A stretch of DNA of 64,000 nt. Origin: an uncultured Candidatus Saccharibacteria bacterium (GTDB lineage Bacteria; Patescibacteriota; Minisyncoccia; UBA6257; Colwellbacteraceae). Below the pieces are notes generated by a model. That model made no database searches and was not told the origin of the DNA. It was given only the letters and a program-made list of their open reading frames with translations. The translations under genes were made by a program, and so were the position numbers. Location: the NCBI GenBank assembly GCA_964643135.1, contig CAZXPC010000002.1:9049-73048 (forward strand). The letters run 5' to 3'. This document shows, one piece after another, positions 52,692-55,971 of this stretch (its first letter is position 1; each line of letters opens with the position of its first letter).

Positions 52692-55490
52692 ATGGAACGG
52701 GGTCCAAGACTAAAAACATCCGAAGAGCTAGCTGAACAGGCAAAATCGGTTTCAGATAGCTTGGGTCAGGAAATTTCTCAACCCTCAAAAAAGAACGAGG
52801 TTTTTAATTTATCTCTCGAAGAAATAAAAGCTAGGTTTCCAAGACGCTACGATATTTATCTGAAAAACCTCAAAGCCAAGAAGGCTGGCAAAGAAATTGA
52901 TCCGGACGAGAAAGAAAAGATGGTTAAATGGCTTATTGTTTTGAATAACCTTGATAAATACATTGAAGCTCATAAATCGGGTGGGGACGTTACTCTACGT
53001 GAGCACCAAATCGGTCCTTTCGAAGCGCTAAGAGATTTTCTTGAAGAAGGAGGGGATGCGGGGCACATCAAACTTCCAACTGGCTCGGGGAAAACAGTTG
53101 TTGGGGCCGAATTCATTGAGGCGACAGGTTTAAAGACTTTAGTGGTTGTCCCAACAAGGACGTTGGTTGGTCAGACCATGGGGCAACTCCAAAAGCATAT
53201 TAAAGGGAGGAAAGTGGGCGCTTATTTTTCAGAACAAAAAGGCTTGACAATGGACGTCGACGTAACGACCTATCAGTCCTTGAAAAACATCGATACCAAG
53301 AAATACGACTTGGTGATTTTTGATGAGGCCCATAAGGCAGAAGGGGAAGATACTGCGAAACTTGTGTCTGAGACTAAATGTATGGTTAAACTTGGCCTGA
53401 CTGCTACGCCCACCAAGAGGACGAGTGAGTTAATGGGTGAAGAAATATATTCGATGCAACTTAGGGATATGATAGAAATTGGAGCCCTTGCTCCATGTCA
53501 GGTTAATCTGGCTAAAGTTAAAAATATTGATACATCGAACGTAACAGTTAATAGGAACGGAGAATATAGCGAAAGCGAGTTGGAAGCCATTTTAAATGTG
53601 CGGCCGGCCAACGAAGCTGCGGTTAAACTATACAAAGAAGGATTCGCCGGCGAAAAGATGATCGCTTTTACTGCTGGGAAATTACATGCTAAAGATTTGT
53701 CAGAACTTTTTAATGCCAGAGGCATAAGAGCGGGATTTATAATTGGCGAGACATCTACTGCTGATAGAGAAGATCTTTTCGCGCGATTTAAGGGTAAAAG
53801 AGTGCTTCGGAATAAAGAAGGCGCAGTGATTGGAGAAGAAATGATTCCGACAGAAGATCAGATTGACGTTTTAATTGGAGCTAGGGTTTTAATCGAAGGT
53901 TTTGATGAGCCTAGGGCCTCAGTCTGCTTCAATATAGTCCCGACTGCCTCTAAAGTTGTTGCTGAGCAAAGGGGCGGCAGAGTTCTAAGAAGGGATGACG
54001 ACAACCCCGGCAAAGAAGCTACTGTGGTTGATTTTGTTTATGAGGGTAAGAATAATAGACAGATATTATTTAGTAGGGTTCTCGGCGGTGCCCGGGTTGG
54101 ATCAGTTGGGAAGTCAGTTTTTGGAGAATCTATTGGTGACAAAGATTATTCGAGAGATAGAGATCAATTCAGAACTAGAGGATTCATTGAAATCGAGGGG
54201 ATAGAATTTATTGTGAATGAGGAAGAGGTTATGAAGGTAGAAAGAAAGATGGATGATGAAGCCTATGATTTTGCCCCTGAAGACTGGAAAACAAACGGCG
54301 GATTGGCGGAAGATATAGGAACCAGTTTCTCAGTTGTTAAAAGGATTGCCGAGAGTGTTCGAGGTGAAAAGCCGGAATGGTTTAGAATTTATAAATTCAA
54401 GGGAGGAAGGGTCGAAGAATATTACAGCCCTGAATTAGTTAAGCTAATCATGGAAGAAGTCCAAGCCAGGGAGGAGGCTCCGGTGGGCTGGAAGACAAAT
54501 GGTTTCGTTGCTAACGTGCTAGATTATGCTCATTCAACGATAAGCAAAATAGCCGATAAATATCGAGTTTCAAATCCAGAATGGTTCAGAAAATACAAGA
54601 TTAAAGCCGGCAGAGTAGAGGAGCATTACGCGCCAGATTTAGTTACCGAAATCAGGCAGGAGCTTGCCTCACGCGAGTTTGCCCCAGAAGGCTGGGTTAC
54701 CAACAAATCGTTATCAAATGAACTTGATGTTGACAAAGGGACTGTCAGGAACAGCGCGAATAGATATCGCGCTGATCATCCCGATATGTTTAGGGTATTT
54801 AAAAATAAACTTGGGCAAATTACAGAGCACTATTCGCCCGAATTAGCCTTGATGGTTAAAAGAGACATCTCAACTCGCGAGAACCGTCCCGAAGGTTGGA
54901 TGACTAACGGAGAGCTCTTTAATGAGCTCGATGTCGATGAGACTACGGTAAAAAATCGAGCCGATCGATATCGAGCCTCACATCCGGATTGGTTTAGGGT
55001 TTATAAGAATAAGACAAATAAGCCCACCGAACACTATTCTCCTGAATTGGCAGCAATCATCAAAAGAGATATTGTGTCATATGAATATGCTCCCGAAGGA
55101 TGGCACATAACCAATGAATTAGCCGAAGGACTTGGCGTTTCAGCGCGGTCGATTCAGAATGAAGCCGAACGACACAGATTCGCTCACCCTGATTGGTTTA
55201 AAAAGTACAAAGTAAGAATGGGACGTGTTTTAGAGCACTATTCTCCAGAGCTTATCTCAATTATTAAGGCTAAGTTTATGGGTCAAGAATTTGCTCCGGC
55301 AGGATGGAGGCCCAATGCACCGCTCGCGTTAGAGCTGGGATCTACCCCATATACTGTAAAGAAGATAGCTGAGAGGTATAGGGCCGCAAACCCAGCATGG
55401 TTTAGACAATATAAGCCTAAAACAGGACCGATAACAGAGTACTACCATCCAGATTTGGTTGAGAAAATTAAAGAAGCTTTAGGAAAATAG
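52692..55490 (+). CDS. SF2 (DEAD/DEAH, ResIII-like) helicase with six C-terminal ~68-aa tandem repeats
   Basis: LPTGSGKT (motif I), DLVIFDEAHK (motif II), helicase C domain. From residue ~520, six repeats of AP.GW.TN..L...L.......K..A.RYR...P.WFR.YK.K.G...EHYSPEL...I. Confidence 0.8.
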   Translation: MERGPRLKTSEELAEQAKSVSDSLGQEISQPSKKNEVFNLSLEEIKARFPRRYDIYLKNLKAKKAGKEIDPDEKEKMVKWLIVLNNLDKYIEAHKSGGDVTLREHQIGPFEALRDFLEEGGDAGHIKLPTGSGKTVVGAEFIEATGLKTLVVVPTRTLVGQTMGQLQKHIKGRKVGAYFSEQKGLTMDVDVTTYQSLKNIDTKKYDLVIFDEAHKAEGEDTAKLVSETKCMVKLGLTATPTKRTSELMGEEIYSMQLRDMIEIGALAPCQVNLAKVKNIDTSNVTVNRNGEYSESELEAILNVRPANEAAVKLYKEGFAGEKMIAFTAGKLHAKDLSELFNARGIRAGFIIGETSTADREDLFARFKGKRVLRNKEGAVIGEEMIPTEDQIDVLIGARVLIEGFDEPRASVCFNIVPTASKVVAEQRGGRVLRRDDDNPGKEATVVDFVYEGKNNRQILFSRVLGGARVGSVGKSVFGESIGDKDYSRDRDQFRTRGFIEIEGIEFIVNEEEVMKVERKMDDEAYDFAPEDWKTNGGLAEDIGTSFSVVKRIAESVRGEKPEWFRIYKFKGGRVEEYYSPELVKLIMEEVQAREEAPVGWKTNGFVANVLDYAHSTISKIADKYRVSNPEWFRKYKIKAGRVEEHYAPDLVTEIRQELASREFAPEGWVTNKSLSNELDVDKGTVRNSANRYRADHPDMFRVFKNKLGQITEHYSPELALMVKRDISTRENRPEGWMTNGELFNELDVDETTVKNRADRYRASHPDWFRVYKNKTNKPTEHYSPELAAIIKRDIVSYEYAPEGWHITNELAEGLGVSARSIQNEAERHRFAHPDWFKKYKVRMGRVLEHYSPELISIIKAKFMGQEFAPAGWRPNAPLALELGSTPYTVKKIAERYRAANPAWFRQYKPKTGPITEYYHPDLVEKIKEALGK

Positions 55491-55613
55491 CTCCGCAGGT
55501 AGGGCACTTCGCTATCTCACTGCTCGGCTAAAGCCTGCGCTTTGAAACCCAGCGGTTTCAATACTTCCGCCACGGGAAAACTCCCGTTTTCCCGACCCCT
55601 TTCCCGTTCGATC
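55490..55613 (-). repeat. tRNA-linked conserved motif plus 15-bp copy of tRNA-Asn 3' end (att-like, minus orientation)
   Basis: rc reads GGGATCGAACGGGAAAGGGGTCGGGAAAACGGGAGTTTTCCCGTGGCGGA ... AAACCGCTGGGTTT ... GATAGCGAAGTG + CCCTACCTGCGGAGC. The core copy overlaps the helicase stop codon. Confidence 0.6.
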
Positions 55614-55670
55614 CCACTGGCGGTAAATACTAAAAAATATCTGACAGATTCAGATATTTTCTAGTATATG

Positions 55671-55971
55671 CTCCGCAGGTAGGGATCGAACCTACGACCA
55701 TCGCCTTACACTTGTCCTATCGTTGCCGTTAGGGGTGGACTATATCATATCCCGTTTCTTACCGGGACCGAGGCGCTTCCGCGCAACTGTTTTGCGAGTA
55801 CTCCCACTAGGGGATAGTCTCTACACCTTCCGAACGAATTGTCCGGCTTGGCTCGGGATTGCCCATTTAAATTAAAAAGGGTTTCCCCGAATTCACCTCG
55901 TTTTTCAAACTAGATTGCTCTAGTAAGCTGCCTTCTGACAGGGCGCCGCTCTACCGCTGAGCTACTGCGGA
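55671..55971 (-). tRNA. tRNA-Asn (anticodon GTT) interrupted by a group I intron
   Basis: Exons 55938-55971 and 55671-55708 splice to TCCGCAGTAGCTCAGCGGTAGAGCGGCGCCCTGT|TAAGGCGATGGTCGTAGGTTCGATCCCTACCTGCGGAG, closely matching a bacterial tRNA-Asn (anticodon loop CTGTTAA). A hairpin (55634-55660) follows the gene. Confidence 0.8.
55709..55937 (-). ncRNA. group I intron (IC3-like) in the tRNA-Asn anticodon loop, no ORF
   Basis: ~229 nt between anticodon positions 35/36. Contains GAAGGTGTAGAGACTA and CGAGCCAAGC core elements as in the Azoarcus tRNA-Ile intron (recalled from memory). U at -1 can pair with intron GCAG (P1); intron ends in G. Confidence 0.7.

Follow-up and report, generated by a model that had tools for sequence, protein, structure and literature searches.

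What does a helicase gain by ending in six copies of the same small domain? The question is raised by a gene in a 64,000 nucleotide (nt) stretch of DNA from an uncultured Candidatus Saccharibacteria bacterium (GenBank assembly GCA_964643135.1, contig CAZXPC010000002.1, positions 9,049 to 73,048), referred to here as the window. The gene encodes a 932 amino acid (aa) protein that is also contained, in exact form, in public assemblies (P0001). The original prediction described it as a superfamily 2 (SF2) helicase followed by six tandem repeats of about 68 aa, recently amplified, that bind nucleic acid or protein. On balance we lean toward reading it as an XPB/RadD-like SF2 translocase tethered to a DNA anchor of six winged helix-turn-helix (wHTH) domains, a chromosomal, stand-alone protein of Patescibacteria.

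The repeats themselves are clear. They start exactly 68 aa apart and run head-to-tail to the end of the protein (nt 54267-55487; Table 1). Searched with a profile of 103 repeats taken from proteins other than the window protein, all six copies scored 79-89 bits (i-E 1e-17 to 1e-20, Z = 1.8e9). The maximum among 500 shuffled arrays was 7.6 bits, and thus the six-repeat observation is real and far beyond chance. Eleven single residues are invariant in all six copies (P4, W7, A28, R32, P36, F39, K43, E51, Y53, P55, and L57), a shorter list than the GW, RYR, WFR, EHY, and PEL blocks first called strictly conserved. Pairwise identity among the copies is 34-66% at the aa level and 46-59% at the nt level. 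Identity at third codon positions is 0.25-0.42, which we read as saturation. Tandem Repeats Finder (TRF) did not find a tandem repeat of ~204 nt in the array DNA, the period suggested as a means of dating the amplification. The repeats of the window protein are no closer to one another than to the repeats of other proteins. No positional orthology of the repeats with those of homologs was seen, a comparison that is uninformative as the homologs are all at most ~42% identical overall. Recent amplification is ruled out by the TRF result and the low third-position identity; arrays occur across the family, and to judge from the sequences this one is ancient and its duplication old.

Each repeat is confidently modeled as a wHTH. 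An AlphaFold2 (AF2) model of repeat 4, built with 109 aligned repeats, has a predicted local distance difference test score (pLDDT) of 86.2, in agreement with the original prediction of a folded domain rather than low complexity sequence. The model begins with a short strand at W7-T9 (8-9), followed by helices at residues 10-17 and 21-32, a hairpin at 39-43/49-53, and a helix at 55-67. The two-helix HTH is thus followed by a β-hairpin wing, packed with the N-terminal strand. This β-α-α-hairpin-α pattern is seen in all six repeats of the full-length AF2 model (mean pLDDT 87.9, predicted template modeling score (pTM) 0.59). A Foldseek search of the single repeat against the PDB returned only wHTH DNA-binding proteins, none at a significant level. 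The matches listed include 3r0a, RacA bound to DNA (5i44), BldC bound to DNA (6amk/6ama), the Pukovnik excisionase Xis (4j2n), and many MarR-family/DNA entries. The best matches in a library of viral protein models were uncharacterized proteins, MerR-like HTH proteins, and excisionases.

At the sequence level the HTH signal is weak, but consistent. A single marginal match to Pfam GntR (29.8 bits vs. a cut-off of 27) covers aa 651-691 and straddles the junction of repeats 2 and 3, taking in the final helix of the former and the HTH of the latter. Matches below threshold were to HTH_17 (14.7-16.8 bits, cut-off 27), CI repressor, and HTH_29, and one homolog (P0006) has stronger summed scores for HTH_29, HTH_28, HTH_23, and HTH_17. 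A lone repeat used as the query gave no HTH match, and the individual repeats do not qualify as Pfam HTH_17, MerR, or GntR domains. NCBIfam and PHROGs held nothing specific for the array, the PHROG matches there being weak and of a generic HTH type. The repeat family is absent from the copies of Pfam, NCBIfam, PHROG, and PADLOC that were searched, and the proteins that carry it are currently annotated only as "DEAD/DEAH box helicase" or "hypothetical protein." The description of the module as uncharacterized was therefore correct. The GntR match across a junction raises the possibility that the trailing helix of each unit might double as the opening helix of a canonical winged helix formed with the following unit. 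Under such a scheme, repeat 1 would be completed by a helix at aa 510-524, and the whole array might be a continuous rod.

Conservation and charge across the 109 repeats bear on what the array may bind. Conservation is highest at aromatic or aliphatic residues (W7, F39, Y42, H52, Y53, and L57), which probably form the core, and at prolines. The conserved charged positions are basic and are located in helix 2 and the wing (K25, K26, K30, R32, K40, and K43), with R32 kept in 97 of the 109 repeats. The array has an isoelectric point of 8.8, vs. 6.1 for the motor. An improbable alternative to a DNA anchor is that the wHTH array has no nucleic acid ligand of its own and is a protein-protein scaffold, one that recruits or oligomerizes partners such as RNA polymerase, repair factors, or further array proteins. 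Many winged helices do mediate protein contacts, e.g., those in cullins, ESCRT-II, and TFIIE/F. A scaffold would suit repeats that are nearly neutral and best conserved in their core and aromatic residues, with a variable HTH surface, and the pTM of the full-length model is a hint that the array may be fairly rigid. It would fit less well with conserved surface charges that are basic and fall on helix 2 and the wing. The fusions described below cut both ways, as those to sigma-70 could mean an RNA polymerase complex as the context, but the identified partners are DNA motors or sigma factors, and no conserved neighboring gene points to a binding partner. Of the two options first offered for the array, nucleic acid binding is the better reading given the DNA-binding type of the fold, with the protein scaffold ranked as a rival.

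The motor that precedes the array is a complete SF2 core, as initially described. Pfam ResIII (aa 100-241, 86.7 bits vs. a cut-off of 22.5), DEAD (47.5 bits vs. 26), and Helicase_C (aa 318-434, 31.7 bits vs. 23.5) all score above their gathering thresholds. Motif I (Walker A, GSGKT, 131), motif II (DEAH, 211), motif III (TATP, 237), and the arginine-finger motif VI (QRGGR, 426) are intact, and their columns are invariant across 50 helicase homologs. A phmmer search of the motor against the PDB resulted in hits to archaeal XPB (XPBII, 2e-13), SauUSI (1.6e-11), and RadD (1e-10). The top Foldseek hits of the full-length model were XPB in the TFIIH/preinitiation complex (7egb_6, E 5.6e-16) and RadD (8h5y, E 4.7e-15), at 18-24% identity, and phrog_16 ("DNA helicase") matched the protein with 193.5 bits. 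The scores against the NCBIfam equivalogs are far below the cut-offs, both for XPB (NF045503, 69.1 bits vs. 610) and for RadD/YejH (NF053632, 78.6 bits vs. 720). RadD has a four-Cys zinc-binding motif and a C-terminal tail that binds the single-stranded DNA-binding protein SSB. The window protein has three Cys in all (positions 230, 269, and 412), and thus a zinc site of that kind is impossible; at its C-terminus we found the wHTH array, not an SSB-binding tail. XPB is characterized by an N-terminal damage-recognition domain, a RED motif in lobe 1, and a thumb insertion in lobe 2. We file the core as an XPB/RadD-like SF2 translocase that is a member of neither family.

The motor is flanked by smaller elements. 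The first 99 residues had no match in Pfam and are modeled as five helices (10-24, 31-37, 42-48, 50-65, and 71-95). Between motor and array, residues 473-492 are modeled with low confidence and probably form a flexible tether. They are followed by a short element with the consensus IxIxGLxVIxDxEEVMRIV in the helicase family. A Pfam scan of the window protein found no nuclease, methylase, or integrase domain.

The repeat is not confined to this protein. A search of the six-repeat profile against 1.84 billion cluster representatives (clustered at 50% identity) resulted in 620 proteins at E ≤ 1e-3, 262 of them at E ≤ 1e-30. Among 240 of the repeat proteins, proteins carry 1-15 copies, most often 6. 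The start-to-start spacing has a sharp maximum at 68 aa (393 of 1056 intervals), with 63% of the intervals at 67-69 aa. Other searches were less productive: a scan of genome contigs found 3 loci, and a homologous-protein search with the 109-repeat profile found one protein. A metagenome scan, keyed on generic helicase motifs, mostly gave helicases of 25-30% identity and was not used for context. Nearly all named sources of the repeat are Patescibacteria, i.e., Daviesbacteria, Levybacteria, Saccharimonadales, Taylorbacteria, Uhrbacteria, Moranbacteria, Magasanikbacteria, Doudnabacteria, Colwellbacteria, Yanofskybacteria, and the "Patescibacteria group." The sole contig labeled otherwise (L004, JADYYL010000016.1, 4.9 kb, seven repeats) is from a "Deltaproteobacteria bacterium" metagenome-assembled genome and is probably mis-binned. 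The repeat was not found in 50,697 phage genomes or in a pattern scan of IMG/VR, and a phage- or plasmid-type origin of the array was rejected on these absences and on the weak, generic PHROG matches.

The partners of the array were tabulated for the best 150 of the 620 proteins. An XPB/RadD-like helicase with an array, as in the window protein, accounts for 22, and an array followed by a SNF2 ATPase and a class-I methyltransferase for 25. In 55 an N-terminal domain of ~240 aa precedes the array, and many are arrays alone. The ~240 aa domain (P0122 aa 1-242 and 54 related segments) carries the motifs ilPP..GE...G.G, iPR, MmR..sY, and NDEEGNATF, had no match in Pfam or the PDB, and is a second uncharacterized domain of Patescibacteria. 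Seen from the side of the motor, 59 of 120 helicase homologs bear 1-10 copies of the 68 aa repeat, and the array is therefore a trait of the helicase family. The architecture recurs across Patescibacteria, and its initial description as unusual is not supported. Other homologs, with cores ~41% identical, end in arrays of INT_rpt (PF14882) instead; three such sister helicases (P0039, P0046, and P0066) have 5-6 C-terminal repeats. The C-terminal array is thus an exchangeable module. Two homologs connect the motor to sigma factors. One, P0021 (1051 aa; loci L008 and L009), recovered from two sequencing runs, consists of the helicase, three repeats, and a complete sigma-70 with regions 2 and 4. 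In the other, P0100, sigma region 4 forms the C-terminus. It is unusual for an XPB-like motor to be combined with a sigma factor in this way.

Three of the stand-alone arrays (P0134, P0160, and P0145) are encoded directly upstream of SNF2 genes, and we read these pairs as split versions of the array-SNF2 fusion. They are located in or beside operons for ribosomal proteins and rpoB, and a further array gene follows rpsP and a KH protein gene (Table 1). The placement would also fit a different substrate. The ligand of the array would then be structured RNA (nascent transcripts, rRNA, or tRNA), with the SF2 core as a remodeler of RNA or ribonucleoprotein in ribosome biogenesis or RNA turnover. 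We consider this doubtful, although the location of SNF2-linked arrays in ribosomal operons keeps the idea of a link to RNA or the expression machinery alive. The methyltransferase fused to the SNF2 proteins has weak matches to Methyltransf_8, presumably the Rrp8 family, infB lies ~5 kb upstream of the gene in the window, and tandem winged helices in SelB are a precedent for RNA binding. Operon placement, however, is no evidence for a substrate. The closest relatives of the motor, XPB and RadD, are DNA enzymes, SNF2 ATPases are established double-stranded DNA (dsDNA) translocases, and the nearest folds to the repeat are wHTH proteins bound to DNA.

We return, then, to the covalent DNA anchor. 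Each 68 aa module would bind duplex DNA via the second HTH helix and the basic β-hairpin wing. With a fixed head-to-tail pitch of 68 aa, the array would extend over several helical turns of the DNA and act as a multivalent anchor, in effect a covalent version of the head-to-tail filaments formed by the single-domain wHTH proteins BldC and RdfS. The array would hold one stretch of DNA as the motor pulls or twists the neighboring DNA relative to the anchor, and the outcome may be local unwinding, looping, torsion, or the displacement of bound proteins. The process is possibly linked to transcription, given the sigma-70 fusions in relatives. Anchored translocases work in this manner, for example type I restriction enzymes, SNF2 enzymes, and XPB as part of TFIIH. 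Several observations argue for this mechanism: the best structural neighbors of the repeat are all DNA-binding wHTH proteins, the identified fusion partners track along DNA or are bound to it (XPB/RadD-like, SNF2, and sigma-70), and the linker separates motor and array. The weak HTH signal in the sequence, the conserved basic positions of helix 2 and the wing, the higher isoelectric point of the array, the preferred 68 aa spacing, and the intact ATPase motifs also count in its favor.

Several points weigh against it. Winged helices can also bind RNA or proteins. The structural matches are weak: those in the PDB have E-values of at least 0.06, probabilities of 0.66-0.90, and template modeling (TM) scores of 0.40-0.56, and the best match in the viral library has E 6.8e-3 and TM 0.71. 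The family profile had no wHTH match among PDB sequences; the best E-value, 0.06, was on unrelated proteins, and no GntR or MarR chain was found below E = 1. Over the 109 repeats, the sequence varies strongly in helix 1 and in the N-terminal part (half) of helix 2, and because of this poor conservation a shared DNA motif is not predictable. Single repeats are nearly neutral, with net charges of -2 to +4. The commonest partner of the array, the ~240 aa domain, is without known function. Finally, the position of the SNF2-linked arrays in or beside ribosomal protein and rpoB operons also fits a role with RNA or the ribosome.

A more specific version of the anchor can be proposed, though we think it unlikely. 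The module would be a concatenated DNA filament of the BldC/excisionase type, specific to Patescibacteria, that serves as a long-footprint anchor on two unrelated kinds of dsDNA translocase (XPB/RadD-like and SNF2) and sometimes on sigma-70. The window protein would be a bacterial counterpart of anchored translocases such as XPB in TFIIH. It would spend ATP on opening, twisting, or clearing DNA near promoters, or on recycling RNA polymerase, in organisms whose toolkit for transcription and repair is minimal. Bolder still, the variable positions on the HTH surface would give each repeat its own DNA preference, and the arrays would be modular readers of long sites. The wHTH fold and the motor superfamily are ordinary. 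What is new is an uncatalogued, lineage-restricted repeat family, in up to 15 copies at a fixed pitch, on DNA motors and one complete sigma factor.

Table 1. Features of the helicase gene and its surroundings in the window, and loci of array genes on other contigs (L numbers).
Feature	Position	Strand	Evidence or remark
Whole helicase gene	52692..55490	+	Single ORF, 932 aa; N-terminal helical region, SF2 core, linker, six wHTH repeats
N-terminal all-helical region, aa 1-99	52692..52988	+	Kept across helicase family (LNNLDxYIxxH motif)
SF2 ATPase/translocase core, aa 100-465, XPB/RadD-like	52989..54086	+	Pfam, motifs, Foldseek, phmmer
Low-confidence linker between motor and array, aa 473-492	54108..54167	+	pLDDT <50
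Small conserved pre-array element, aa 488-525 (helix, β-hairpin, helix 510-524)	54153..54266	+	Full-length AF2 model
Repeat 1, aa 526-593	54267..54470	+	82.1 bits vs. profile of foreign repeats
Repeat 2, aa 594-661	54471..54674	+	84.2 bits vs. profile of foreign repeats
Repeat 3, aa 662-729	54675..54878	+	81.6 bits vs. profile of foreign repeats
Repeat 4, aa 730-797, copy modeled alone	54879..55082	+	88.9 bits vs. profile of foreign repeats
Repeat 5, aa 798-865	55083..55286	+	83.0 bits vs. profile of foreign repeats
Repeat 6, aa 866-932, end of protein	55287..55487	+	79.2 bits vs. profile of foreign repeats
TAG stop of helicase gene	55488-55490	+	Open reading frame (ORF) list
Exact 15 nt direct repeat, GCTCCGCAGGTAGGG, equal to tRNA-Asn 3′ end	55490-55504 and 55670-55684		Starts at last base of helicase stop codon
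tRNA-Asn(GUU), split in anticodon loop	55671-55971	-	ARAGORN on hand-spliced sequence calls tRNA-Asn(gtt)
Group I intron in tRNA-Asn, 229 nt	55709-55937	-	Rfam RF00028, 61 bits
GNAT acetyltransferase, divergent from helicase	52157-52660	-	NCBIfam AAC(3)-I equivalog, 212.7 vs. 200 bits
Two small paralogous ORFs, 94 and 74 aa	51256-51540, 51818-52042	-	One hydrophobic segment each and PYPNPVPYPNPVPNPVPTP proline-rich repeat tail
Stand-alone array upstream of SNF2 (sometimes SNF2-methyltransferase)	L097 3183-8455		In S10 operon, between rplB and rpsS
Stand-alone array upstream of SNF2 (sometimes SNF2-methyltransferase)	L012 6001-10391		Before rpsL-rpsG-fusA
Stand-alone array upstream of SNF2 (sometimes SNF2-methyltransferase)	L006 152-5052		Before trmD-rpoB
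Array gene after rpsP and KH protein, then second array-like gene	L096 7001-11143

The surroundings of the gene had suggested a variable neighborhood, with an AAC(3)-like gene upstream and an att-like repeat of a tRNA-Asn at the stop codon. The first of these two features is present: the divergent acetyltransferase of the GNAT (GCN5-related N-acetyltransferase) type passes the AAC(3)-I cut-off and is a resistance-type gene in a Patescibacteria genome. Beyond it are the two small ORFs, of a PYPNPVP-repeat membrane type, and farther upstream a PG_binding/fn3 protein, tRNA-Cys, tRNA-Leu, and IF-2. Downstream on the minus strand are the intron-bearing tRNA-Asn, a membrane protein, a UbiA-type prenyltransferase, PlsY, and CdsA. 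No integrase, nuclease, or methylase gene was found among the scanned neighbors in the window or called at the loci of homologs. The window gene and five helicase homologs were compared by context. No two of the six genomes have the same neighbors, most of the contexts are of housekeeping genes, and no defense partner was called. Thus, there is no island and no defense locus around the helicase, and the description as a variable neighborhood is not supported.

The second feature, the att-like repeat, is present as an exact 15 nt repeat of the 3′ end of a tRNA-Asn on the minus strand, and the pair resembles an att scar. It does not bracket the helicase, however. The two copies enclose 165 nt, with the helicase outside, and no third copy beyond chance was found at up to 3 mismatches; for these reasons the helicase is not island cargo. 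A genomic island bounded by tRNA-Asn and holding the helicase is ruled out, as the gene is not located between the copies and no integrase was found among the scanned neighbors. The tRNA-Asn is split by a group I intron and ARAGORN misses it in the unspliced sequence. A U precedes the 5′ splice site (..CCCUGU|), and the intron ends in a G. A 2020 preprint reports tRNA introns of this kind to be frequent in metagenomic assemblies from unnamed phyla (10.1101/2020.01.27.920355). The spacer at 55491-55669 folds unusually well as RNA, into four hairpins (-60.7 kcal/mol, z = -6.1 vs. shuffles). It had no Rfam match at E up to 1 and could represent convergent terminators or a decayed element.

It is in this setting that a role in a mobile element or anti-phage defense has to be weighed, in which the protein would be a restriction-like "Res" helicase that detects foreign DNA through its array, carried in a variable island beside a tRNA att site and a resistance gene. 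We regard such a role as very unlikely. The Pfam ResIII match, the PDB match to SauUSI, and the phrog_16 phage helicase score (193 bits) can be taken in its favor, as can PADLOC matches to PbeA (55.7 bits) and type IV restriction helicases (37 bits). The PADLOC matches are weak, however, and reflect the generic SF2 core. The best of them, PbeA, covers part of the core, partner genes are missing, and the protein is rejected as a member of the PADLOC anti-phage helicases. The AAC(3)-I gene, the tRNA-Asn 3′ end duplicated at the stop codon, and a local GC content of 42-44%, vs. ~50% upstream, would also fit an island, but the dip in GC is mild and the att-like pair leaves the helicase outside. 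The protein has no nuclease, methylase, or integrase, nor have the scanned neighbors or the homolog loci; the neighbors of all six genomes differ and are mostly housekeeping genes, and the repeat is absent from the phage genomes and the IMG/VR pattern scan.

Patescibacteria, or the Candidate Phyla Radiation (CPR), comprise a large share of bacterial diversity. Their genomes are small, and the ways in which they handle DNA and RNA have hardly been studied. New lineage-specific domains are common in CPR genomes, and the function of this one is something we infer. As a covalent DNA anchor, the array would offer a simple, testable model of translocase targeting in Patescibacteria, and a compact natural scaffold whose footprint length would scale with repeat number. 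Should it prove not to be one, the family still deserves a domain entry.

The closest known systems each share a part of the design. XPB/Ssl2 of TFIIH, archaeal XPB, and Escherichia coli RadD (YejH) have the two-RecA-lobe SF2 core and motifs I, II, III, and VI in common with the window protein, and XPB, a dsDNA translocase held by other factors, works by the mechanism proposed here. XPB and RadD are without the N-terminal helical region and the C-terminal wHTH array, and at 18-24% identity the window protein falls far below the equivalog cut-offs of either. SNF2 ATPases with accessory DNA-binding domains (RapA and eukaryotic remodelers) follow the same logic of an anchor and a dsDNA translocase. 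The 68 aa array is N-terminal to SNF2 in the 25 fusions described above, whereas the motor of the window protein is not a SNF2 ATPase. The sister helicases with INT_rpt have the same core (~41% identity) and, at the same position, a C-terminal array of repeats of ~55-60 aa; together, the two kinds of array show a modular design of motor plus repeat array. INT_rpt is a different repeat family. The hhalign probability with the 68 aa module is 22.6% over 32 columns, the two families are not detectably related, and Pfam gave no INT_rpt match on the window protein even at E up to 1.

For the array, the N-terminal domains of GntR, MarR, and ArsR regulators share the fold class. The arrays do not have the effector or dimerization domain of these regulators, and the GntR match falls on one of the six repeats, across its boundary. 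More similar are BldC, RacA, and the excisionases Xis and RdfS, which have the same elements as the module, i.e., an HTH, a β-hairpin wing, and a trailing helix. BldC is a MerR-like wHTH of 68 residues, equal in size to the window module, that forms head-to-tail multimers on direct repeats and distorts the DNA (PMC5859096). RdfS forms helical wHTH filaments that read long DNA regions by indirect readout (PMC11963761). The fold matches of the module to BldC, RacA, and Xis are at E ≥ 0.06, with no match in sequence, and its DNA binding is predicted. BldC, RacA, and the excisionases are single-domain proteins, whereas the units of the window protein are covalently joined, six here and up to 15 in relatives, and are coupled to an ATPase.

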